25,942 nucleotides of DNA from a virus (taxonomy: Duplodnaviria; Heunggongvirae; Uroviricota; Caudoviricetes). Below, piece after piece: positions 1,459 to 16,654 of this stretch. The notes below the pieces were generated by a model, which saw only the letters and a list, made by a program, of their open reading frames with translations, had not been told where the DNA came from and did not search any database. Position numbers and translations under genes: made by a program. Positions within the stretch are counted from its first letter, which is position 1; each line of letters starts with the position of its first letter. The stretch lies in the IMG/VR virus record IMGVR_UViG_2563366768_000033; one strand, given 5' to 3'.

Positions 1459-2433
1459 TTACACATCATTAGTACCTTCCTTATTTTTTGACTGGGACAA
1501 ATTTGGGACCGATGGGTTCAGGATCGAGTCTATTTGCCGTGCGTGTTCGGTAAGGTGATTAGGTGCAAGGTGAGCATATCGACGAACCATTTCGATAGAC
1601 TCCCAGCCTCCCATTTCCTGTAACACTGACAACGGGACTCCGGCTTGAACCAGCCAACTTGCCCAGGTGTGTCTCAAGTCGTGAAATCTGAAATCATCAA
1701 TACCAGCCCGTCTCAGCGCCGCTTTCCAGGCTGTGTTTGCGTCATACCGCATCTTCCTTACTGTTGGCGCTTTCGTTCCGTCTGGTTTGGTACAGCTTTC
1801 CTTGTACACAAATACCCAACGGTGATGATTACCGATTTGTTTTTTCAATACGCGACATGCAGTATCATTCAGCGCAACGCCAATTGCGCGGTTTGATTTA
1901 CTCTCTTCCGGGTTTATCCATGCCACCCGGCGCTGCATATCTATTTGTTGCCATTCAAGGTTGATGATGTTCGAGCGTCTTAAGCCTGTTGCCAGTGCAA
2001 ATTCAACAACAGACTTTAATGGCTCCGGACATTCATCAATCAGCCTTTGTGCTTCATGGGGCTCCAGCCAGCGGAGCCGTTTATTCTTTGGTTGAGGCAC
2101 TTTAATAATTGGTGCCTTATCGAGCATTTTCCATTCACGCTCTGCGGCTCTTAGCAGGGCCTTTATAAATGAAAGATGCGTAGCCTTCGTTGCAACGGAC
2201 GCTGGTTTTGGCGTGTATTCTGGAACAGGTTTCCCTTTTTTTCTGCATGCTTCTGCCCTGAGTTTCCAGTTTTCCTCATGACGCCGGTTCGTCATTTTCT
2301 GCATTGCTGAATAAATTTTTGATTCAGTAATGTCTCTTAGTTGCATTCCTGCGAAATGTTGAAGCCAGAATCCGATCTGCTTTCCATTGAGCCTGTTTCT
2401 CTGCGCGACGTTCGCGGCGGCGTGTTTGTGCAT
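1459..2433 (-). CDS. phage tyrosine integrase, lambdoid IntD-like catalytic region; apparently 5'-truncated and fused to lambda N DNA
   Basis: 324-aa ORF with tyrosine-recombinase motifs ([17 protein letters not shown]...MVRRYAHL); adjacent to thrW and transcribed toward it. Its first 19 codons are lambda N sequence read in another frame, so the native arm-binding N-terminus (about 85 aa by comparison with recalled IntD) is missing. Confidence 0.8.
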
Positions 2434-2437
2434 CCAT
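2324..2437 (-). pseudogene. N: lambda N antiterminator, 5' fragment (first 20 codons) ending at a deletion junction
   Basis: Minus-strand frame reads [20 protein letters not shown], the arginine-rich N-terminus of lambda N, then diverges (DRILASTF...) and stops at 2324; located just downstream of nutL/PL as in lambda. Confidence 0.75.
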
Positions 2438-2594
2438 CTGGATTCTCCTGTTAGTTAGCTTTGGTTGTGTGTGGGAGTCGTAGTCCTGAACGAAAACACC
2501 CCGCAATGGCACATTGGCTGCTAATCCGGATTCGCACTTCCGGCCAATGCTTCGTTTCGTATCACACACACCAAAGCCTTCTGCTTTGAATGCT

Positions 2595-2625
2595 GCCCTT
2601 CTTCAGGGCTTAATTTTTAAGAGCA
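2595..2625 (-). promoter_or_regulatory. nutL (boxA 2617-2625, boxB hairpin 2595-2609)
   Basis: Minus strand reads TGCTCTTAAAAATTAAGCCCTGAAGAAGGGCAG, matching lambda nutL boxA-spacer-boxB (GCCCTGAAGAAGGGC stem-loop). Confidence 0.8.
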
Positions 2626-2654
2626 TCACCTTCATGGTGGTTAGTGCGTCCTGC

Positions 2655-2730
2655 TGATGTGCTTAGTATCACCGCTAGTGGTATTTGTGTCAACACCGCC
2701 AGAGGTAATTTATCACCGCAGATGGTTATC
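2655..2730 (-). promoter_or_regulatory. lambda PL promoter with operators OL1 (2667-2683), OL2 (2691-2707), OL3 (2711-2727)
   Basis: TATCACCGCTAGTGGTA, CAACACCGCCAGAGGTA and TATCACCGCAGATGGTT are 17-bp cI operator half-palindromes in lambda OL order; leftward -35 TTGACA (top-strand TGTCAA 2688-2693) and -10 GATACT (top-strand AGTATC 2665-2670). Confidence 0.85.
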
Positions 2731-2808
2731 TGTATGTTTTTTATATAGATTTATTTTTTGCAGGGTTGTGTGGCTTGGGAGGTGATCGAGAGATCAGAAT
2801 TGCGTTGT

Positions 2809-3198
2809 TTAGTGAGTTGCACCTATTAATTTTAAAATAAATACAATTGGTGTTTTTCGAGTTTTTCTTAACTCTTCATGCAGCTCCGTTCTCAGAATAT
2901 ATGATTTTTCGAGTTTGAAATTCTTGCGACCAGGCGTCTTATTGCCAGGCTCAGGAAGTGGAAGGCGTGTTTGAATGTCGAGTGGTGGACAGTCATAGAA
3001 GTAAATTCTATAAAGCTCAAGCGGTTCCCTACGTTCTTGTGATTGACGTTTTCCATTAAGATGGGAAAGAACCATTGACCATATTACTTTCATTATGCAT
3101 TGCGCAGTCAGTTCATGCTCGGCGAAGTGTTTACGATGCGTAGCATGAACACGCTGCATGAAAAAACCCGCATCAATTAAAATTGCTGCTTTCTTCAT
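2809..3198 (-). CDS. hypothetical protein (129 aa) in the slot lambda uses for rexAB between OL and cI; function unknown
   Basis: ORF MKKAAILIDAGFF... on the cI strand directly downstream of cI. Its N-terminus has a hydrophobic-IDxG start reminiscent of NYN/PIN-like nucleases but the motif set is incomplete. The last ~12 codons run into lambda-homologous DNA near 2845, so the 3' end may be junction-derived. Confidence 0.5.
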   Translation of the reverse strand: MKKAAILIDAGFFMQRVHATHRKHFAEHELTAQCIMKVIWSMVLSHLNGKRQSQERREPLELYRIYFYDCPPLDIQTRLPLPEPGNKTPGRKNFKLEKSYILRTELHEELRKTRKTPIVFILKLIGATH

Positions 3199-3325
3199 AA
3201 GAGTCCCAAAAAAATAGCCCAGAGCCGTTATGCAGATATTAACAATTGTCTGCGAACGGGGCTGGGCTTGGTTTAATTAATCTATGCCAAGTTGACTGTG
3301 CCGTCAACATAAAACTTACTTCCTA

Positions 3326-4042
<717 letters not shown>

Positions 4043-4049
4043 TTAAATC

Positions 4050-4116
4050 TATCACCGCAAGGGATAAATATCTAACACCGCGCGTGTTGACTACTTTACC
4101 TCTGGCGGTGATAATG
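4050..4116. promoter_or_regulatory. lambda OR region: OR3 (4050-4066), OR2 (4073-4089), OR1 (4097-4113), PRM and PR (-35 TTGACT 4087-4092, -10 GATAAT 4110-4115)
   Basis: TATCACCGCAAGGGATA / TAACACCGCGCGTGTTG / TACCTCTGGCGGTGATA between divergent cI and cro, followed by AAGGAGG and the cro ATG at 4140. Confidence 0.9.
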
Positions 4117-4130
4117 GTTGCATGTACTAA

Positions 4131-4340
<210 letters not shown>

Positions 4341-4347
4341 ATAACCC

Positions 4348-4379
4348 CGCTCTTACACATTCCAGCCCTGAAAAAGGGC
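4348..4379 (+). promoter_or_regulatory. nutR (boxA CGCTCTTA 4348-4355, boxB GCCCTGAAAAAGGGC 4365-4379)
   Basis: Direct match to the lambda nutR boxA/boxB arrangement between cro and cII. Confidence 0.8.
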
Positions 4380-4458
4380 ATCCAATTAAACCACACCTAT
4401 GGTGTATGCATTTATTTGCATACATTCAATCAATTGTTATCTAAGGAAATACTTACAT

Positions 4459-4752
4459 ATGGTTCGTGCAAACAAACGCAACGAGGCTCTACGAATCGAG
4501 AGTGCGTTGCTTAACAAAATCGCAATGCTTGGAACTGAGAAGACAGCGGAAGCTGTGGGAGTTGATAAGTCGCAGATCAGCAGGTGGAAGAGAGACTGGA
4601 TTCCAAAGTTCTCAATGCTGCTTGCTGTTCTTGAATGGGGGGTCGTTGACGACGACATGGCTCGATTGGCGCGACAAGTTGCTGCGATTCTCACCAATAA
4701 AAAACGCCCGGCGGCAACCGAGCGTTCTGAACAAATCCAGATGGAGTTCTGA
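4459..4752 (+). CDS. cII: CII transcriptional activator (97 aa)
   Basis: ATG at 4459 gives MVRANKRNEALRIESALLNKIAMLGTEKTAEAVGVDKSQISRWKRDWIPKFSMLLAVLEWGVVDDDMARLARQVAAILTNKKRPAATERSEQIQMEF, i.e. lambda CII; the ORF track's upstream extension (4399) is not used. Confidence 0.95.
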   Translation: MVRANKRNEALRIESALLNKIAMLGTEKTAEAVGVDKSQISRWKRDWIPKFSMLLAVLEWGVVDDDMARLARQVAAILTNKKRPAATERSEQIQMEF

Positions 4753-4774
4753 GGTCATTACTGGATCTATCAAC
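4697..4774 (-). ncRNA. oop: oop antisense RNA (about 77 nt) overlapping the cII 3' end
   Basis: Minus strand from 4774 reads GTTGATAGATCCAGTAATGACCTCAGAACTCCATCTGGATTTGTTCAGAACGCTCGGTTGCCGCCGGGCGTTTTTTATT, matching recalled lambda oop with its GC hairpin and U-tract terminator. Confidence 0.75.
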
Positions 4775-4784
4775 AGGAGTCATT

Positions 4785-5707
4785 ATGACAAATACAGCAA
4801 AAATACTCAACTTCGGCAGAGGTAACTTTGCCGGACAGGAGCGTAATGTGGCAGATCTCGATGATGGTTACGCCAGACTATCAAATATGCTGCTTGAGGC
4901 TTATTCGGGCGCAGATCTGACCAAGCGACAGTTTAAAGTGCTGCTTGCCATTCTGCGTAAAACCTATGGGTGGAATAAACCAATGGACAGAATCACCGAT
5001 TCTCAACTTAGCGAGATTACAAAGTTACCTGTCAAACGGTGCAATGAAGCCAAGTTAGAACTCGTCAGAATGAATATTATCAAGCAGCAAGGCGGCATGT
5101 TTGGACCAAATAAAAACATCTCAGAATGGTGTATCCCTCAAAACGAGGGAAAATCCCCTAAAACGAGGGATAAAACATCCCTCAAATTGGGGGATTGCTA
5201 TCCCTCAAATTGGGGGATTGCTATCCCTCAAAACAGGGGGACACAAAAGACACTATTACAAAAGAAAAAAGAAAAGATTATTCGTCCGAGAATTCTGGCG
5301 AATCCTCTGACCAGCCAGAAAACGATCTTTCTGTGGTTAAACCGGATGCTGCAATTCAGAGCGGCAGCAAGTGGGGAACAGCAGAAGACCTGACCGCCGC
5401 AGAGTGGATGTTTGACATGGTGAAGACCATCGCGCCATCAGCCAGAAAACCGAATTTTGCTGGGTGGGCTAACGATATCCGCCTGATGCGTGAACGTGAC
5501 GGACGTAACCACCGCGATATGTGTGTGCTTTTCCGCTGGGCCTGCCAGGACAACTTCTGGTCCGGTAACGTGCTGAGTCCGGCCAAACTCCGCGACAAGT
5601 GGACCCAGCTCGAAATCAACCGTAACAAGCAACAGGCAGGCGTGACAGCCAGCAAACCAAAACTCGACCTGACAAACACTGACTGGATTTACGGGGTGGA
5701 TTTATGA
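4785..5707 (+). pseudogene. O: lambda O replication initiator, frameshifted inside the ori iteron region
   Basis: N-terminal part (MTNTAKILNFGRGNFAG...ISEWCIPQNEGKSPKTRDKTSLKLGDCYPS) is in frame 0 and stops at 5393 after reading through unrelated sequence. The C-terminal O sequence (SKQGDTKDTITKEKRKDYSSENSG...DWIYGVDL) continues in frame +2 to the stop at 5705-5707. The shift coincides with a 23-bp tandem duplication at 5177-5222. Confidence 0.85.
5133..5240. repeat. ori-lambda iterons: five 18-bp O-binding repeats (5133, 5153, 5177, 5200, 5223) where lambda has four; third unit duplicated
   Basis: ATCCCTCAAAACGAGGGA, ATCCCCTAAAACGAGGGA, ATCCCTCAAATTGGGGGA (twice, each with TTGCT spacer = exact 23-bp tandem repeat 5177-5199/5200-5222), ATCCCTCAAAACAGGGGGA, followed by the AT-rich ori segment. 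Confidence 0.85.
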
Positions 5708-6015
5708 AAAACATCGCCGCACAGATGGTTAACTTTGACCGTGAGCAGATGCGTCGGATCGCCAACATCGATAACCAGGACATGACGATATCGGTCTGGG
5801 TCTTTCCTGATACTGATATTTCAGATGTATCGCGTGAGTTAATTGCGGCAATTAAACAGGGGTATCTAACAGTAAAAGCCGCCGGGGTATGGGCGGGGGG
5901 CATTGAAACACCTTCGGTGGAAACTCCATCGGAAGGCTCTAAATTTTTTGGTTTTGATATGGATAACGAATTCATCAGTGGTTTTGATGTAGGGGCATGG
6001 GGAGTATTACTCTGA
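5704..6015 (+). pseudogene. P: lambda P replication protein, first 21 codons, fused at a deletion junction to the 3' end of an unrelated (tail-module) reading frame
   Basis: ATG overlaps the O stop (ATGA) as in lambda; product begins MKNIAAQMVNFDREQMRRIAN (lambda P N-terminus) then switches to IDNQDMTISVWVFPDTDIS... and stops at 6013-6015. Confidence 0.7.
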
Positions 6016-6725
6016 TGGCGAAAAATGACTTTAAAGCGTTTGCAACTGATCGAAATGCCAATGTTATGTCGCAGGAGGAATGGGAAGCGTTGCCTGCGCT
6101 TATATCCGGATTTACAGCAGGGAAAGCATCCAGTGCGCAAGTCAATAAGGTTATTCGGCAGGCCAGCTTTATTGCTGCAGCTCTGGCCCAGTTTGTAAGT
6201 GATAAAACGCAACGGGATGTGCTTGATAATGGTGATCTGCCCGGTTTTGTTGAATTGCTGGGATCGGGGTTTGCTGTTGAATACCTGAGCCGCAAGAATC
6301 CGTTTGGCGATATCAAATCGGACGGCACGGTGAAAACGGCTCTTCAAAACCTTGGTTTGGGAGAAGCGGCAAAACGGGATGTGGGGACAGGGGAAAATCA
6401 GATACCGGACATGGCCTCTTTTGCCAGTGGTAATGGATGGATGAAATTACCCAACGGGAAAATCCTGCAATATGGTCGTGGTGCGGTTACGCCGACATTA
6501 TCGACGCAAACAATGAGAATTACATTCAGCATCCCTTTCCCCAAAAAAGCGGACTGCGCCATGCTTACTCATTCTGGTGATGGCGGTGCGCCTTTAGGCG
6601 CTGGGCGAGGGTTCGTGATGACTGCAGAAGGCCCAACGTTAACCGGCTTTAATTCTGCTTACAGAACGTCATCAACCAGCGACACGGTATCGATGAATTA
6701 CAGTTGGTGGGCTGTTGGTGAGTAA
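6015..6725 (+). CDS. side tail fibre protein, variable C-terminal segment (StfP-like); alternative start 5997
   Basis: Product [61 protein letters not shown]... is characteristic of e14/Mu/P1-type tail fibre variable regions; followed by a tail-fibre assembly gene and an inverted second set. Confidence 0.7.
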
Positions 6726-6736
6726 TTTTATTCAGG

Positions 6737-7189
6737 GTGATTTATATGGACGAATATGTTTATAGCGCAAGGCATAATGCTTTTTTCCCTGTGGATATGA
6801 TTGATAAATATAAATCAGAGGGATGGGATTTATCAGACGCTAAGGAAGTAAATCAAAATATTATCAGTGAGTTTATGGCTGAACCGCCACAAGGAAAAAT
6901 CCGTATTGCCGGAGATGATGGGCTGCCTGCGTGGGCAGATATTCCTCCACCCACGCATGAAGAGCTTATTGAAATTACTGAATCAGAAAGACAGCTACTA
7001 ATTAACCAGGCCAACGAATACATGAACAGTAAGCAATGGCCCGGTAAAGCGGCTATTGGTCGTCTGAAAGGTGACGAACTGACGCAATATAATTTGTGGC
7101 TGGATTATCTGGACGCACTGGAGCTGGTCGATACTTCCGGTGCGCCAGATATTGAATGGCCTACGCCTCCGGCAGTTCAGGCCAGATGA
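6737..7189 (+). CDS. tail fibre assembly protein (Tfa)
   Basis: 150-aa ORF directly after stf; C-terminus ...LTQYNLWLDYLDALELVDTSGAPDIEWPTPP is the conserved Tfa tail, mirrored by the convergent paralogue at 7161-7754. Confidence 0.8.
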   Translation: MIYMDEYVYSARHNAFFPVDMIDKYKSEGWDLSDAKEVNQNIISEFMAEPPQGKIRIAGDDGLPAWADIPPPTHEELIEITESERQLLINQANEYMNSKQWPGKAAIGRLKGDELTQYNLWLDYLDALELVDTSGAPDIEWPTPPAVQAR

Positions 7190-7754
7190 CATCCGGCGCG
7201 GTGCTGGTATCTGTTGCCGTCACCGCGTCAATGTAATCCAGCACGGCGTTAAGTCGGGTTGTTTCTGCCTGAGTCAGTTTCCGTCCGGCCTGTAACTTCA
7301 GCTGAATCAGACTAATGGAAGCCATTGCTGCATCAATCAGTGATTGGCGCTGTGCTTCTGCCGCGTCTACTGCGGCACTGTGTTGTGCCTCAGTGTCTGT
7401 CACCCATTTCTCACCATCCCATTTATCGTATGGCGTTAACGGTGAAATCGTGACATAACCGTCTTTGATGGCACCGATATAATCCACTGTAACAGCTGCG
7501 CCATTTTCGATTGAGTAAACAGTCTCATTGCGATGGTCTTCTTCATGGCTCCATCCCTTACCTGTAAATACTGCCACTCTTCCCGGAATGTTTTCGCCAG
7601 GGTCAATACCAGTGGAACAGGCGGGCATACTTACGCCAGTATTAATATATTCATCAGACCAGCCCGTATACTCAGATGTTTCAGCATCATAATAAAAACA
7701 ACGCATATCGCCCGGCACTGTAGCCAGCCCATTTTCATCAAAAACAGGTTTCAT
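7161..7754 (-). CDS. tail fibre assembly protein, alternative copy (TfaE-like) in inverted orientation
   Basis: 197-aa ORF MKPVFDENGLATVPGDMRCFYYDAETSEYTGW... ending ...LNAVLDYIDAVTATDTSTAPDVIWPELPEA; convergent and overlapping with the plus-strand tfa, as in G/P invertible segments. Confidence 0.8.
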   Translation of the reverse strand: MKPVFDENGLATVPGDMRCFYYDAETSEYTGWSDEYINTGVSMPACSTGIDPGENIPGRVAVFTGKGWSHEEDHRNETVYSIENGAAVTVDYIGAIKDGYVTISPLTPYDKWDGEKWVTDTEAQHSAAVDAAEAQRQSLIDAAMASISLIQLKLQAGRKLTQAETTRLNAVLDYIDAVTATDTSTAPDVIWPELPEA

Positions 7755-8251
7755 TATTTAGCCCTCACCAGAAAGTTAAATGCAATATTTCGCGGTCTGA
7801 CTGCAACAAAATTCACACCATCACCCACAGAGTTACTGGTGAAATTAAATCGTGAAAATCCTGGCTGATTTCCGGCGATGCCATCATGAAAGTTAATTGC
7901 GTGTCCCGCACCTTCGCCTATATTCCCGGCAAACTGAGAAAAGTTTGTAGCTGCCTGCCAGCTTAATAATTCGCGACCACCGTCTGCACCTCGCCCGTCA
8001 TCCCAGATACGAATGAAATCACCGCGGGCTTCAGGTAATACCAGCGAAGGAAACACTTTCGCCAGCACAGGATAATCAGTGGCAGAGAATTTCGCGCCGT
8101 TGAACTTCAAAAACACCATACAGGACCAGCTGTCGATTACAGTATTTGGCATTGCAGCGGACGGCCAGAAGAACGGAACGCCAATAGCTGGAGCACCTTC
8201 TCCCAAACCAACGTTTATGAAAATGCAGAAATAACGAGCAAATGGCATCAT
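7754..8251 (-). CDS. alternative tail fibre C-terminal segment (StfE-like), currently in the off orientation
   Basis: 165-aa minus-strand ORF abutting the pin upstream region with no constant tail-fibre N-terminal part attached; position equivalent to stfE of e14. Confidence 0.65.
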   Translation of the reverse strand: MMPFARYFCIFINVGLGEGAPAIGVPFFWPSAAMPNTVIDSWSCMVFLKFNGAKFSATDYPVLAKVFPSLVLPEARGDFIRIWDDGRGADGGRELLSWQAATNFSQFAGNIGEGAGHAINFHDGIAGNQPGFSRFNFTSNSVGDGVNFVAVRPRNIAFNFLVRAK

Positions 8252-8277
8252 TCCTGCTTTTGTCAGGGAGATCTACC

Positions 8278-8832
8278 ATGCTTATTGGCTATGTACGTGT
8301 GTCAACAAATGACCAGAACACAGATCTACAACGTAATGCGCTGAACTGTGCAGGATGCGAGCTGATTTTTGAAGACAAGATAAGCGGTACAAAGTCCGAA
8401 AGGCCGGGACTGAAAAAACTGCTCAGGACATTATCGGCAGGTGACACTCTGGTTGTCTGGAAACTGGATCGGCTGGGGCGCAGTATGCGGCATCTGGTCA
8501 TTCTGGTTGAGGAGTTGCGCGAACGTGGCGTTAATTTTCGCAGCCTGACGGATGCTATTGATACCAGTACCCCAATGGGGCGCTTTTTCTTTCATGTGAT
8601 GGGGGCCCTGGCTGAAATGGAACGAGAACTGATTGTTGAACGAACAAAAGCTGGACTGGAAGCTGCTCGCGCACAGGGACGAATTGGTGGACGTCGTCCC
8701 AAACTTACACCAGAACAATGGGCGCAGGCCGGACGATTAATTGCAGCAGGAATTCCTCGCCAGAAGGTAGCGATCATCTATGATGTTGGTGTATCGACAC
8801 TGTATAAGAAGTTTCCGGCCGGAGATAAATGA
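8278..8832 (+). CDS. pin: serine DNA invertase (Pin/Gin/Hin family), 184 aa
   Basis: From ATG at 8278: MLIGYVRVSTNDQNTDLQRNALNCAGCELIFEDKISGTKSERPGLKKLLRTLSAGDTLVVWKLDRLGRSMRHLV... with catalytic Ser in VRVSTNDQ and C-terminal HTH; placed directly after the inverted stf/tfa pair. Confidence 0.9.
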   Translation: MLIGYVRVSTNDQNTDLQRNALNCAGCELIFEDKISGTKSERPGLKKLLRTLSAGDTLVVWKLDRLGRSMRHLVILVEELRERGVNFRSLTDAIDTSTPMGRFFFHVMGALAEMERELIVERTKAGLEAARAQGRIGGRRPKLTPEQWAQAGRLIAAGIPRQKVAIIYDVGVSTLYKKFPAGDK

Positions 8833-8889
8833 AACCGTAGCACGTCGTATGCAAGATCGTGCTGCGGTTTATGCTTACCACTTGAAGAT

Positions 8890-9759
<870 letters not shown>

Positions 9760-9842
9760 CTAACCCTTTGAATTTACATAGCGCAAAAAGATACCTTTCC
9801 TCATAATGTGAGCTAATTTTATGTTTCGTTTGATGATCGGGT

Positions 9843-10486: not shown

Positions 10487-11230
10487 ATGGCAACTACATG
10501 TTCAGTTATATTGATTTTGGAGTCCTTTGATGTTTATTTCGGAAAAGAGAGTGTGTTTCTGGAGAGAGGTTCATCTGTACTTGTCGACTCTAGCTCTAGA
10601 GATTTTTTCCTGACATATCCTGAAAGAGTGATAGTGGCGGATTTTGGCGCTGAGTTTATTAGTCGCTATTTGAAAGCTAATAACTTAAGGGATATTTCTG
10701 ATTGTAGGGAATATCCATCTTATTTAAAAATAAACTTTGCTGACTTCAGTTTAATTAAAGGATTAATTAGTTGGGCTAATCACTGTGCTGAATACATAGA
10801 AATTTTTGATGAGTCTATTGCTTTTACATGTCTCTCTGCATTTTCTTCTGAAAAACAATTTGGAGTATTTCTGTTTGGATGTTTGAAAAGCACAGGGGCT
10901 AAAGTTAAAACGATTATTCATACGGATTTATCTGCACCATGGCGTCTTAAGGATATATCATCAAGATTATATCTCAGCGAAAGTTTACTAAAGAGGAAAT
11001 TGAAAGAAGAGGGGGTATCATTCAGTAAGATCATACTTGATGAGAGGATGCAAATGGCTGAATATTTACTCAGCACTCGTTGTTATCCTATTAGTAAAGT
11101 AGCTAAGGTCTGTGGTTATGCCAGTGTCTCATACTTTACTTATGTATTTAGACGTTATTTTGGTGTTTCTCCAAGTCAATACTCTCAGAGGAGTTCAGAA
11201 AGTAAAATTCTTACTCACCAGGGAATCTGA
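10487..11230 (+). CDS. AraC/XylS-family transcriptional regulator (AppY/Rns-like)
   Basis: 247-aa product with C-terminal dual HTH (WRLKDISSRLYLSESLLKRKLKEEGVSFSKIILDERMQMAEYLL...KVAKVCGYASVSYFTYVFRRYFGVSPSQY); AT-rich gene and upstream region; GGGGG Shine-Dalgarno before the ATG. Confidence 0.75.
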   Translation: MATTCSVILILESFDVYFGKESVFLERGSSVLVDSSSRDFFLTYPERVIVADFGAEFISRYLKANNLRDISDCREYPSYLKINFADFSLIKGLISWANHCAEYIEIFDESIAFTCLSAFSSEKQFGVFLFGCLKSTGAKVKTIIHTDLSAPWRLKDISSRLYLSESLLKRKLKEEGVSFSKIILDERMQMAEYLLSTRCYPISKVAKVCGYASVSYFTYVFRRYFGVSPSQYSQRSSESKILTHQGI

Positions 11231-11271: not shown

Positions 11272-11720
11272 TTAAGTTAACGTTACCCGCTGACGTCGAT
11301 ATTCTCGCGGAGAGCGATAACCCAACGCACTGTGCGGATGGTTTTCATTGTAATGTTCGATCGCCACTGCAAGATTATGCAATGCCGTTCTTACATTCGG
11401 TTTCGGCATGAACGCGATGTAGTCTTCCTTCATCGTTTTCACGAACCTTTCTGCAATTCCATTACTCTGAGGACTGCTGATTGCCGTTGTGCAGGGCTCC
11501 AGATTCAACTCTCTGGCGAACTGCCGTGTTTCATGCGCTCTATACGCTGAACCGTTATCTGTCAGCCACTGGATGGACTGTTCCGGTACTTTATCGCCAA
11601 AGCGTTTTTCTATCGCTCCTAACATGACATCCTGCACTGTCGCTTTATCGTAACCTCCCGTGCTTGCGGCCCAGTCTATGGCTTCACGATCGCAACAGTC
11701 CAGGGCGATTCATCTGGGCC
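11272..11720 (-). mobile_element. IS2-family (IS3 group) transposase orfB, 3' fragment only
   Basis: Minus-strand translation ...[72 protein letters not shown]...[14 protein letters not shown] parallels the C-terminal integrase-core region of IS2 InsD as recalled; no orfA, no 5' half and no terminal inverted repeats seen. Confidence 0.7.
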
Positions 11721-13377: not shown

Positions 13378-13794
13378 GTGTCTCAACCACTTTCGGAAAT
13401 ATTGACATGGGATGATGAACAATGGGAGGTATTTGTCCATGATTGGCTTATTGTCTGTAAATCAGATGATTACCCGTGGAGCGAACGTTTGGGAGGAGCT
13501 GGAGATAAAGGTAGAGACGTTGTTGGATATAAATCGGATCCTAACGTAGAAGGTTATTCTTGGGATAATTATCAATGCAAACTGTACAAAAAAAGTTTAG
13601 GGTTCTCTGATGTTGTAGTTGAGTTTGGAAAACTTATCTATTTTACTCTGAATGGTGATTATCCCATCCCTCAGAAGTACTTTTTTGTGGCACCCTATGA
13701 TTTATCTACTACATTTTCTAATTTATTGAAAAATAAAAACGAGCTTAAAAAAGCAGTCCTTGATTCATGGGATTCAGCAATTTCAAAAAAATAA
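13378..13794 (+). CDS. cargo gene 1, N-terminal part: Mrr-like PD-(D/E)xK nuclease domain (frame broken at A7 tract 13785-13791)
   Basis: GTG start 7 nt after AAGGAG (13365-13370) and 4 nt after the int stop; product contains GGAGDKGRDVVGY...(17 aa)...YQCKLY, the GxGDxGxD / QxK pattern of Mrr-type nuclease cores. Very AT-rich. Confidence 0.6.
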   Translation: MSQPLSEILTWDDEQWEVFVHDWLIVCKSDDYPWSERLGGAGDKGRDVVGYKSDPNVEGYSWDNYQCKLYKKSLGFSDVVVEFGKLIYFTLNGDYPIPQKYFFVAPYDLSTTFSNLLKNKNELKKAVLDSWDSAISKK

Positions 13795-14384
13795 CTAAAA
13801 AGATTGATATTCCATTAGATGATGAAATAAAAAAATATATTGAGGATTTTGATTTTAGTATTTTTTACTCTCTACCCTTATCATTGATTTTAAATGATAT
13901 TGCAAATACACACCTTTATTTTAAGTACTTTAACGAGCTGTATGTCGTGAGAATCCCTCCAAATGAAATTCCAACATACAATTCAAAAAAAGAGTCTGTA
14001 TATGTTAATGCACTGCTTCAAGCCTATTCAGAGCATGGAAATAAAACTTATAGTTCTTTCTTAGAGCTTGATGATCCATACAGACGACACTTTAATAATA
14101 GTAGAAATGATTTTTATTTTGCATCTTCGCTTGAGGTTTTTGTCCGCGAAGTATTTAAAGATGATGTATTCAAAGCATTGAAATGTTACATTTCATCTTC
14201 AATTGAACCCGTCTTTTATGAAGACCATAATTATGCATTTATTAGGTGTAATGCAGTCTTGAAGCAGGCTGTTCTGACACCAATTGCACATTCAGTACTA
14301 TCAAAAATATGTGAAGCAAATGATAAAAAAGGAATATGCCATCATTTGGTTAATGATGGTGAAGTAATTTGGACGGTGAGATAA
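13767..14384 (+). CDS. cargo gene 1, C-terminal part (unknown domain); probably the continuation of 13378-13794
   Basis: This frame is open from 13764 and overlaps the previous ORF's end across an A7 run; one extra A would join them into a single ORF of about 336 codons. Stop TAA at 14382-14384 overlaps the next ATG. Confidence 0.55.
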   Translation: MGFSNFKKITKKIDIPLDDEIKKYIEDFDFSIFYSLPLSLILNDIANTHLYFKYFNELYVVRIPPNEIPTYNSKKESVYVNALLQAYSEHGNKTYSSFLELDDPYRRHFNNSRNDFYFASSLEVFVREVFKDDVFKALKCYISSSIEPVFYEDHNYAFIRCNAVLKQAVLTPIAHSVLSKICEANDKKGICHHLVNDGEVIWTVR

Positions 14385-14842
14385 TGGTTAGAATTTATAA
14401 TTCAAGTTTAGAAGTGGCATGTCGAATGGCGAAAGTGCTCGTCGCTATTTATCCTTCTTCATTAAGCCTTGAACGGCTTATTTGTTTTGATTTTATTTTA
14501 GTAAATCTTAAGGATTTTTTACCTGAAGAGATTAGTCTTCATCCTCCAATACCCCGTAGAGATGCTCAGTTAGCCCTAAAACGAGAGATTGTTTTAGAAT
14601 CATTGGCTTTGTTGCAAGGCTATGAACTAGCCTCAAAAATTTATACACATCGTGGTTTTGTATATAAAGCTTCTGAAAAAACATATGCATTTACAAATTC
14701 TCTACATAATGAATATGTTGCGCAGATGGAGCATAATATAAATTTGGTGGTTAAGTTATATAGTGATATTCCTGATGAGCAGTTGCAATCAATTATAAAA
14801 AATAAAATTGGCAAATATGATATGGAATTTAATTATGAATGA
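14384..14842 (+). CDS. cargo gene 2: small protein (152 aa), predicted mostly helical; candidate middle component
   Basis: ATG at 14384 overlaps the upstream stop (TAATG); product MVRIYNSSLEVACRMAKVLVAIYPSSLSLERLICFDF...; its stop overlaps the next gene's ATG (ATGAATGA). Confidence 0.6.
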   Translation: MVRIYNSSLEVACRMAKVLVAIYPSSLSLERLICFDFILVNLKDFLPEEISLHPPIPRRDAQLALKREIVLESLALLQGYELASKIYTHRGFVYKASEKTYAFTNSLHNEYVAQMEHNINLVVKLYSDIPDEQLQSIIKNKIGKYDMEFNYE

Positions 14843-15467
14843 CAATTTTTTTACGTTCAGAAAAATAAAGGTAACCGGATTCAATAAATTAGATGCTATA
14901 ATTGAATTTGGTTCTAAATTGACTATTTTATATGGTGGTTCTGACTCTGGAAAAACATACATATATTATTTGATTCGATATTTATTAGGGAGTGAAAAAC
15001 TAAAAAATAAAGATATCGATCATGCTCAAGGTTATGATTTAGCCTATCTGGAATTTAATTTTCAAGGTAGGGTAATGACAATTGAGAGGTCTCTTCAGGA
15101 TAGCGCCCATTACAGATTATATGATTCGAGCATTGAAAATGTTAGTGAAGCTAATCTGTTGATGGTTTTTTCCAAAAGTGCTTCGTCTAAAAAGAGTTTT
15201 TCATCATACTTTTATGGTAGGTTGAATTTCAAAGAGGCTAAAGTAAGAACAAACTTAAGTAATACTCTTCATAAATTTAATCTTAATAATGTTTTTGAAT
15301 TTTTTTGTATTGATGAATTAAGAGTGTTAACTGAGAAGTCGTTAATTCTTTCTGATATTCCTAGCGAGGAGACAAAAAGAAAGTCTGAATTTAAATTCCT
15401 TTTAACTCAGAGAGATGATACTAACTCCTTAGCAGAAAAACCAAATAAAAAAGCAAGATATTTTTAA
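14835..15467 (+). CDS. cargo gene 3, N-terminal head of an SMC/Rad50-like ABC ATPase (Walker A); ends at an in-frame TAA
   Basis: MNDNFFTFRKIKVTGFNKLDAIIEFGSKLTILYGGSDSGKTYIYYLIRYLLG: classic SMC/RecF-type N-terminus with Walker A GGSDSGKT. The ORF stops at TAA 15465-15467 inside a T5A7 tract while the same frame stays open downstream. Confidence 0.7.
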   Translation: MNDNFFTFRKIKVTGFNKLDAIIEFGSKLTILYGGSDSGKTYIYYLIRYLLGSEKLKNKDIDHAQGYDLAYLEFNFQGRVMTIERSLQDSAHYRLYDSSIENVSEANLLMVFSKSASSKKSFSSYFYGRLNFKEAKVRTNLSNTLHKFNLNNVFEFFCIDELRVLTEKSLILSDIPSEETKRKSEFKFLLTQRDDTNSLAEKPNKKARYF

Positions 15468-16088
15468 AAAAATCAAATTGCAAATATTTATGAGGAATTG
15501 AAAGCGCAATTAATTTATCCTGAATATGATCAAGTCATTGTTTCAAGAGAACTTGAGAAAGTAGAGCAAGATATTGAATCATCGAAAGATATATTGAAAG
15601 GTATTGTTGATGCACTTGATGATAAGAAGCAATTATTAAAAGAGTTAAGTGATGAATTATATTCAATCAGTGACAGGGAAAAATACTTATCATTACTCAT
15701 TGAAAGATTTAGTCTTCTTAAAGACCAATACTTTATAGATCTACAAAGAATAGATGTTGTATCACAGGCGAATTTCTATTTAAATAATTTTGCAGATATT
15801 TATTGTGAGTTCTGTAATACACCGCAAAAAAAAGAAAATGAAATATCATATGATGATTGTTTTTTGTCGTGTAATGCAGAAAAATTGAAAATCAAAAGCC
15901 AGCTGAAAGGATTAATTGAATCAATCGGATCTAATGTTCGCGAACATGAATTAATTATGTTAAGAAAAAATGATGTTAATGAAATTTATCAATCAGAAAA
16001 AAGTGATTTTAAGACGTTAGAAGATAAAAATATAAAACAATACATTCATCTCTTGAATCACTTTATGAATATAAAGACAATCTTTTAA
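15468..16088 (+). CDS. cargo gene 3 continued: coiled-coil segment with CxxC...CxxxC zinc-hook-like motif
   Basis: Same frame as 14835-15467, open right after the TAA, with no ATG for about 150 codons (the ORF track uses TTG at 15498). Heptad-like charged/leucine-rich sequence and YCEFCN...(14 aa)...CFLSCN (15804-15872). Confidence 0.55.
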   Translation, partial: KNQIANIYEELKAQLIYPEYDQVIVSRELEKVEQDIESSKDILKGIVDALDDKKQLLKELSDELYSISDREKYLSLLIERFSLLKDQYFIDLQRIDVVSQANFYLNNFADIYCEFCNTPQKKENEISYDDCFLSCNAEKLKIKSQLKGLIESIGSNVREHELIMLRKNDVNEIYQSEKSDFKTLEDKNIKQYIHLLNHFMNIKTIF

Positions 16089-16654
16089 TGGATCACACAA
16101 AACATAGCATTCTATCTTCATTACAAGATAAAGAAGATGATGTTGACGAACTTAAATACTCCGCCGAGGACTTTGACTCCTTAACAGTAGCTGATTTGTA
16201 TGATATAGAAATAGCGATGCAAGACTTTTTGAATGATATAAATTTTGAAAATTCTAAAGATAACAAAGTGCGATTTGACGAAGATACATATGACTTTAAT
16301 ATCAATGGGAAACGCCGAGGAATGTTTGGTAAAGGTACCCGTGCAGTAATGCATGCTATATTTACCATTTGCTTTGCGGAATTTTTATCAAGAAAAGGGA
16401 ATCCATTCATTGGATTTGTTGTGCTTGATAGTCCATTAGTGACGCACTTTGATAAAGATAGAGGGGGTTCTCTATCGGATGTTAATAGCGTCAGTCTCAG
16501 TGATTCATTTTATCACGCATTAATCAAAAGGGACTATAATTTCCAGATTGTAATTCTTGAGAATAAAGGTCCGACGTTCCAAATAAAAATTAATGATGCA
16601 AATAAAATCCATAACTTAAATAAGAATGGAAGCTCTGGTTTTTATCCTGTTTAA
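16088..16654 (+). CDS. cargo gene 3, C-terminal ABC head segment (Walker B-like FIGFVVLDSP), separate ORF or frame-shifted continuation
   Basis: ATG overlaps the upstream stop (TAATG); product contains ...GKGTRAVMHAIFTICFAEFLSRKGNPFIGFVVLDSPLVTHFD, i.e. a run of hydrophobics ending in D as in Walker B, with Ser where the catalytic Glu normally sits. Confidence 0.55.
   Translation: MDHTKHSILSSLQDKEDDVDELKYSAEDFDSLTVADLYDIEIAMQDFLNDINFENSKDNKVRFDEDTYDFNINGKRRGMFGKGTRAVMHAIFTICFAEFLSRKGNPFIGFVVLDSPLVTHFDKDRGGSLSDVNSVSLSDSFYHALIKRDYNFQIVILENKGPTFQIKINDANKIHNLNKNGSSGFYPV

Follow-up and report, generated by a model that had tools for sequence, protein, structure and literature searches.

An invertible tail-fibre cassette of the Din-invertase type in the virion-gene-stripped prophage Sp1/CP-933H of Escherichia coli O157:H7

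Described fibre switches and the Sp1 cassette

Inversion switches of the Din family include the G segment of phage Mu with its invertase Gin, the C segment of phage P1 with Cin, and the H segment of Salmonella with Hin, which share 26-base-pair (bp) crossover sites and an AAACC NN GGTTT core region. In Mu, one site lies within the fibre gene at the boundary between its constant and variable parts, and the invertase gene is found directly outside the right site. The P segment of prophage e14 with its invertase PinE was reportedly described in E. coli K-12 by Plasterk and van de Putte in 1985. This defective prophage flips continuously, and both orientations co-exist in clonal MG1655-derived cultures (PMC4272514). 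Here, a cassette of the same type is described in prophage Sp1/CP-933H, which resides at thrW in E. coli O157:H7 and is represented by a viral record of 25,942 nucleotides (nt) (IMG/VR IMGVR_UViG_2563366768_000033; Caudoviricetes), hereafter the window. The cassette is very probably a functional Din-family (Gin/Hin/Cin/Pin) inversion switch that survives, most likely as a neutral relic, in an element stripped of its virion genes.

The cassette consists of a tail-fibre gene (stf), an assembly chaperone gene (tfa), an inverted tfa, an inverted 3' half of stf, and the invertase gene pin. This layout had been proposed in the initial annotation and is borne out by the open reading frames (ORFs), Pfam matches, and comparison with e14. 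Its features, in window coordinates and with protein lengths in amino acids (aa), are as follows.

6015-6353 (+), constant 5' part of stf, 113 codons, outside the invertible segment (reading frame and junction; 97% identical to the Stf of vB_EcoM-611R5)
6340-6365 (no strand), pixL, the left crossover site, 26 bp, CTCTTCAAAACC TT GGTTTGGGAGAA, with core TT at 6352-6353 (repeat; aligns with e14 pixL and Mu gixL)
6354-6725 (+), variable 3' half A of stf, now fused to the constant part as a 236-aa Stf (Pfam Gp53-like_C, E 5.8e-12)
6354-8209 (no strand), invertible segment between the two cores, 1856 bp (in-silico flip and genome matches)
6746-7189 (+), tfa-A, assembly chaperone cognate to half A (Caudo_TAP, E 2.9e-30; annotation)
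7161-7754 (-), tfa-B, chaperone cognate to half B, 197 aa (Caudo_TAP, E 2.3e-27; 66% identical to e14 TfaE)
7754-8209 (-), variable 3' half B of stf, tentatively tail-collar-like, now unfused (44% identical to e14 StfE)
8198-8223 (no strand), pixR, the right crossover site, 26 bp, TTCTCCCAAACC AA CGTTTATGAAAA, with core AA at 8210-8211 (identical to e14 pixR)
8210-8251 (-), predicted in-frame ATG leader MMPFARYFCIFINV, outside the segment and part of the ORF at 7754-8251
8278-8832 (+), pin, Din-family serine DNA invertase, 184 aa (Resolvase, PF00239, E 8e-52; HTH_7, PF02796, E 1e-15)
8300-8362 (no strand), putative Fis-dependent recombinational enhancer in pin codons 8-28 (predicted by a degenerate-consensus scan)

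In the present orientation, stf (6015-6725, +) encodes 236 aa and ends in a Gp53-like_C domain. Since pixL falls at codon 113, only 6354-6725 is variable and 6015-6353 is constant. The reading frame of tfa-A could also begin at a GTG (6737). Fibre half B has no Pfam match at E <= 0.01, and its sole Collar match lies below that cut-off (E 0.03), so that the label "tail-collar-like" is tentative. The second fibre segment (7754-8251, -) was said initially to be without a constant N-terminal part, and a 14-codon leader is indeed all that precedes half B. The further claim that the invertase is intact also stands. Pin is full length, has both domains, and is identical to e14 PinE at 178 of 184 residues (97%); it retains the catalytic Ser9 and the KLDRLGR motif. 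Genes named pinE and tfaE are already annotated in O157 reference genomes.

The cassette had been called "e14-like", a description that fits Pin, the crossover sites, the gene order, and the codons at which crossover occurs, but neither the constant part of the fibre (residues 1-91) nor the gene upstream of it. Both loci have the order stf-tfa-tfa'-stf'-pin, place the crossover at the same NLGLGE codons, carry a leader ORF, and belong to defective prophages with a nuclease or defence gene after pin. However, residues 1-91 of Sp1 Stf are unrelated to StfP, and only the last ~26 residues of the constant part are conserved. The fibre tips are 35-44% identical (half A ~35% to StfP, half B 44% to StfE), and the chaperones 54-66% identical, with tfa-A at 54% to TfaP over the C-terminal 112 aa. 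The upstream gene encodes a DUF2612 protein in Sp1 and YmfQ/DUF2313 in e14, the invertible segment measures 1856 bp as opposed to 1797 bp, and the gene beyond pin is PD-T4-3 rather than McrA. The two prophages also differ in residence, as Sp1, a prophage with lambda immunity, occupies thrW beside proA, whereas e14 is found at icd. In short, the Sp1 locus has the invertase and the crossover sequences of the e14 P segment, but lacks its homologous constant part, YmfQ, and residence at icd. Thus, the Sp1 cassette is not an orthologue of the whole e14 module.

The nearest complete relatives are temperate myoviruses of the vB_EcoM-611R5/SEN34 type, with Salmonella phage SEN34 more distant. In vB_EcoM-611R5 and 606R2 (ON470588 and ON470579), the DNA of the constant part and the DUF2612 gene is 97.6% identical to that of Sp1, and the order Stf-Tfa-Tfa'-stf'-invertase is the same. 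Unlike Sp1, which keeps only the last 250 bp of the DUF2612 gene, these phages have a complete baseplate/tail module and form virions. The annotated invertase of 611R5 (9475-9789 in the 611R5 locus) is 104 aa long, with a truncated resolvase domain and no helix-turn-helix (HTH), whereas Sp1 pin is full length.

Comparison with Mu reveals the same kind of 26-bp sites and core region, a site at the constant/variable boundary of the fibre gene, an invertase gene directly outside the right site, an in-frame leader beyond that site, and blocks within the first ~30 codons of pin that are invariant relative to gin. The Mu segment is larger (~3 kb), its fibre is much longer, and Mu is a viable phage. 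Hin, in turn, flips a promoter, whereas the Sp1 switch flips a coding 3' end. Sp1 has several attributes of the Din family, namely a serine recombinase with resolvase and HTH domains, two inverted, imperfectly palindromic 26-bp sites with identical 2-bp cores, and actual inversion at those cores; a putative enhancer is indicated at the level of sequence. Among the tail-fibre switches with Din invertases it is active but ordinary, with no mechanistic novelty.

Crossover sites and natural inversion in O157:H7

The inverted repeats that were expected to flank the segment are present, and they are identical to the e14 crossover sequence, although neither lies where it had been predicted. No repeat occurs in the interval proposed for the left crossover (5.99-6.02 kb). 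The actual site is at 6340-6365, ~340 bp inside stf. The right crossover had been placed at 8.23-8.27 kb and is found ~30 bp further left, at 8198-8223. A repeat search recovered both as a 20-nt inverted repeat (6347-6366 / 8197-8216) that is 95% complementary, with the inner 15 nt perfect. Within the 25.9-kb window, the 14-mer TTCTCCCAAACCAA has exactly two copies, one per strand, against 0.23 expected, and the same 14-mer search found no third pix-type site there. The TT core of pixL and the AA core of pixR are one dinucleotide in inverted orientation. PixR is identical to its e14 counterpart at 26 of 26 positions and pixL at 24 of 26, the two differences being at outer positions, and both sites align with gixL/gixR of Mu. 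The e14 P-segment repeats TTGGTTTGGGAGAAG/CTTCTCCCAAACCAA, published as TTGGTTTGGGAGAAGG and CCTTCTCCCAAACCAA, have the same sequence as the Sp1 repeats and match them (PMC12529663).

Replacing 6354-8209 by its reverse complement in silico keeps the stf frame and changes the product from 236 aa to 264 aa. Across its entire length, the flipped 264-aa Stf shares 97% identity with the tail fibre of vB_EcoM-611R5, an induced, virion-forming phage. It is therefore a real fibre and not an accident of the reading frame.

Both orientations occur in nature. In assemblies, each of which reports one orientation, 86 complete genomes contain the window orientation as a single piece of 3401 bp at 100% identity, and 118 contain the flipped sequence of the same length, again at 100% identity and in a single piece. 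Genomes with the flipped orientation include Sakai, EDL933, EC4115, TW14359, and Xuzhou21. The expectation that both states would be seen is thereby confirmed among public complete genomes.

Cattle strains 110 and 107/109 date one inversion relative to another event. Their chromosomes measure 5,442,850-5,442,851 bp, with 5,442,850 bp in strain 110 and 5,442,851 bp in strain 107, and all carry the insertion sequence (IS) IS1203 at the identical site in tfa-B. Strain 110 has the window orientation and strain 107 the flipped one. In an alignment of 1,566 bp that begins 20 bp beyond the left crossover and extends into IS1203, the strain 110 sequence equals that of strain 107 in reverse complement, base for base. 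Identity starts at the TT core, the outer half-sites differ as expected, and IS1203 is annotated on opposite strands in the two strains. Because the insertion site is shared and the orientations are opposite, the flip postdates the IS insertion and took place within one clone. This also means that the IS-bearing segment of 3.17 kb still inverts; inversion thus proceeds despite a 1.3-kb IS within the segment.

IS1203/IS629 elements hit Sp1 variously, in tfa-B (strains 107/109/110) or beside the integrase gene (strain 9000). Their coordinates are 2122-3335 in the strain 110 locus, 1944-3157 in the strain 107 locus, and 4992-6205 in the strain 9000 locus. DEC4E has two copies within the matched span, and the window is free of both the tfa-B and the integrase-side insertions.

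The cassette is consequently a naturally bistable locus in a major pathogen, where a 1.86-kb inversion distinguishes isolates of a single clone. Such differences can confuse structural-variant calls and the presence or absence of genes in core-genome multilocus sequence typing (cgMLST) or pangenomes, where a 236-aa and a 264-aa Stf would be scored. They can also mislead k-mer-based association or machine-learning studies. Should the TfaE k-mer features of one study (PMC12711010) map to the invertible segment, which contains the tfaE-like gene (7161-7754), or to the segment's junctions, their signal may stem from orientation or the state of the assembly and not from gene content. A report of Sp1/CP-933H inversion in O157 was not found in the open-access literature, of which coverage was incomplete.

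Mechanism, persistence, and alternative readings

By analogy with Gin and Hin, Pin dimers would bind the pixL site within stf and the pixR site that immediately precedes pin. Together with a Fis-bound enhancer in the 5' end of pin, the Pin-bound sites would form an invertasome, in which a staggered cut at the identical 2-bp cores, a rotation by 180 degrees, and religation would invert the segment. As both alternative 3' halves of stf lie within the segment, each accompanied by a chaperone gene tfa, every flip swaps the C-terminal receptor-binding part that is joined in frame to the 113-codon constant part. The alternative fibres are a 236-aa protein with a Gp53-like tip and a 264-aa protein with a collar-like tip.

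The putative enhancer is defined by two Fis-like 15-mers (8300-8314 and 8348-8362) that match the degenerate consensus KNNYRNNWNNYRNNM. Their centres, at 8307 and 8355, are 48 bp apart, a spacing that is characteristic of Fis-dependent enhancers, and the nearer site is ~97 bp from the centre of pixR. The Fis-dependent enhancers of gin, cin, and hin lie in this same part of the invertase gene. Both sites fall in blocks that are invariant among Sp1 pin, e14 pinE, and the 5' region of Mu gin. This pair was kept on account of its spacing and its overlap with the Mu-conserved blocks.

Expression of stf probably depends on transcription from elsewhere. A scan of 5500-9000 for promoters and terminators gave none above shuffled expectation, and no promoter is therefore claimed for stf, pin, or the leader ORF. 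The stf gene is downstream of cro-cII-O'-P', and an overlapping TGATG couples its translation to that of the P'::DUF2612' fusion ORF. It is probably transcribed solely through read-through from lambda pR once CI is cleaved or inactivated.

Because the head, tail, and baseplate genes are gone, the switch cannot change the host range of any Sp1 virion. By analogy with the e14 P segment of K-12, the cassette is most likely a selectively neutral relic that maintains itself.

Several points weigh against a Pin-catalysed, Fis-dependent, and neutral switch. Neutrality is an assumption, and 100% identity across the young O157:H7 clone is uninformative on selection, either way. Polymorphism among assemblies shows flipping but gives neither its rate nor the responsible enzyme. 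O157 genomes hold one or two further places that match pin, so that a paralogue could act in trans in place of the Sp1 Pin, which is the likelier catalyst. The Fis consensus is degenerate, with six matches in 337 bp, only one pair of which has the 48-bp spacing. No sigma-70-like promoter above chance precedes stf, whose expression would probably rely on read-through from pR.

The alternative that survives best concerns the leader. The leader MMPFARYFCIFINV reads across pixR into whichever fibre half adjoins pin, and the annotations of flipped genomes (strain 107 and Sakai) list a 136-aa protein made up of this leader and the Gp53-like tip. Inversion of the e14 P segment by PinQ/PinE is reported to create the chimera StfE2, in which a short leader encoded beyond the segment precedes the tip of StfP (Kirigo et al., 2025; PMC12529663). 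By the same account, StfE2 blocks adsorption of phage T2 (PMC12529663). Sp1 and the PinQ/StfE2 system share the substrate architecture and the formation of a leader-plus-tip chimeric ORF in one orientation. They differ in that the Sp1 tip domain is only ~35% identical to that of e14 and the Sp1 chimera is a predicted product.

In-frame ATG leaders are found outside the right site in Sp1 (MPFARYFCIFINVGLGE), e14 (MPFACYFFIFINVGLGE), and Mu (MPCVPKSTIIQNLGLQE). In the e14 and Mu loci compared, the e14 leader is at ~6612-6656 (-) and the Mu leader at ~3527-3563 (-). Such a leader could be a by-product of the conserved pin/gin promoter region, or it could point to translation of the "silent" fibre tips.

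By analogy with e14, the cassette might be a domesticated anti-phage module, retained because in one orientation a short fibre tip fused to the leader of 13/14 aa would cover receptors in the outer membrane and keep lytic phages from adsorbing. This reading is judged unlikely. In its favour, the crossover repeats and leader ORF of the e14 system are as in Sp1, and the 136-aa leader-tip protein is annotated in the flipped state. Moreover, pin is directly followed by a GIY-YIG (LEM-3-like) gene (8890-9714, -) that matches the single-gene defence system PD-T4-3 over its full length (PADLOC, E 2.3e-140). This gene occupies the slot that the restriction enzyme gene mcrA (McrA) holds in e14, which makes the retained right end of Sp1 look like a defence locus. 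The cassette has also been kept although roughly the whole late region was deleted. However, the variable tip is only ~35% identical to e14 StfP, so that receptor specificity is not transferable from e14. The 5500-9000 scan gave no promoter above chance for the leader ORF, some O157 clones tolerate IS1203 within the segment (tfa-B), and retention in a young clone is no sign of selection. There is a small chance that O157:H7 has kept the right end of Sp1, which comprises the flip cassette, pin, and PD-T4-3, as a phase-variable anti-phage locus.

If that were true, one orientation would make a receptor-masking tip protein, and a sub-population would always be protected in advance. With the leader conserved in Mu, e14, and Sp1, silent fibre halves might then generally be translated as free receptor-binding tips. 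Sp1 offers a second natural setting in which to examine the recent claim that cryptic prophages contribute to phage defence through inversions.

The reading as an active but neutral Din-family switch faces two weaker challenges. One holds that the switch is frozen, its orientations being old, lineage-specific, or assembly artefacts, with no inversion at the present day. Assemblies alone were compared, each with a single orientation, which leaves this idea some room. Yet it is contradicted by one clone, in which strains 110 and 107/109 share the IS1203 site and differ at a base-perfect breakpoint at the core. Both orientations are widespread in O157:H7 at 100% identity and every component is intact, which makes a frozen switch highly improbable. 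Least credible of all is flipping by RecA-dependent homologous recombination between the repeats with no site-specific invertase: an inverted repeat does exist, but it is perfect over just 15 nt (20 nt with one mismatch), far short of efficient RecA substrates, and it coincides exactly with a canonical 26-bp Gin/Pin site beside an intact invertase gene and a putative enhancer. Flipping of e14, moreover, depends on pinE/pinQ (PMC12529663).

The host prophage and its neighbourhood

Many E. coli O157:H7 chromosomes match the 3.4 kb around the cassette at 100% identity. Genome annotation places the region immediately after proA and the tRNA-Thr gene thrW, and in Sakai it is named "prophage Sp1, lambda-like phage". 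From left to right, the window carries the integrase gene, an NYN-domain ORF, cI, cro, cII, O, and the first 21 codons of P. The O gene is frameshifted and contains the ori iterons (5133-5242). The immunity and replication region (2400-5767) is 96.5% identical to phage lambda over 86% of its length, and 98.5% identical to phage ev099. As in ev099, rexAB is replaced by the NYN-domain ORF (2809-3198). The CI repressor ORF is intact, and O157:H7 may for this reason be immune to lambda-immunity phages.

Lambda similarity ends at ~5767, where it is joined to the 3' end of a DUF2612 gene. Two truncated genes meet at this junction.

5704-5766 (+), first 21 codons of lambda P, a truncated replication gene (its annotation is that of a phage replication protein without the C-terminus; the lambda match stops here)
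5768-6015 (+), 3' stub of a DUF2612 baseplate/tail gene, ~83 codons, ~250 bp (97.6% DNA identity to vB_EcoM-611R5 from 5768)

P' and DUF2612' form a fusion ORF of 103 codons (5704-6015), and the stop of the stub overlaps the stf start (TGATG). In Pfam, the full 226-aa gene of vB_EcoM-611R5 matches DUF2612 at E 2.5e-47, and the stub matches weakly (E 6e-4). An origin of the stub from the e14 YmfQ/DUF2313 gene was considered and rejected, as there is no similarity (E 25); it derives from a DUF2612 gene. Annotation and comparison revealed no virion gene in Sp1 outside the cassette except this stub. The initial statement that all other virion genes had been lost therefore holds for every other such gene, but a 250-bp piece of the DUF2612 baseplate gene remains.

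Between the PD-T4-3 gene and the P4-like element Sp2, which starts at ~12 kb in the window, annotated Sp1 contains a low-GC (34-37%) gene for an AraC-family regulator (10487-11230, +) and a fragment of an IS3-family transposase (11272-11637, -). Within Sp2, 13378-16654 (+) resembles a Lamassu defence operon in decay. Two ORFs (13378-13794 and 13767-14384) share what would be LmuA, three (14808-15467, 15498-16088, and 16088-16654) share LmuB, and LmuC (14369-14842) remains whole. The Lamassu-like ATPase is a pseudogene in the Sakai annotation.

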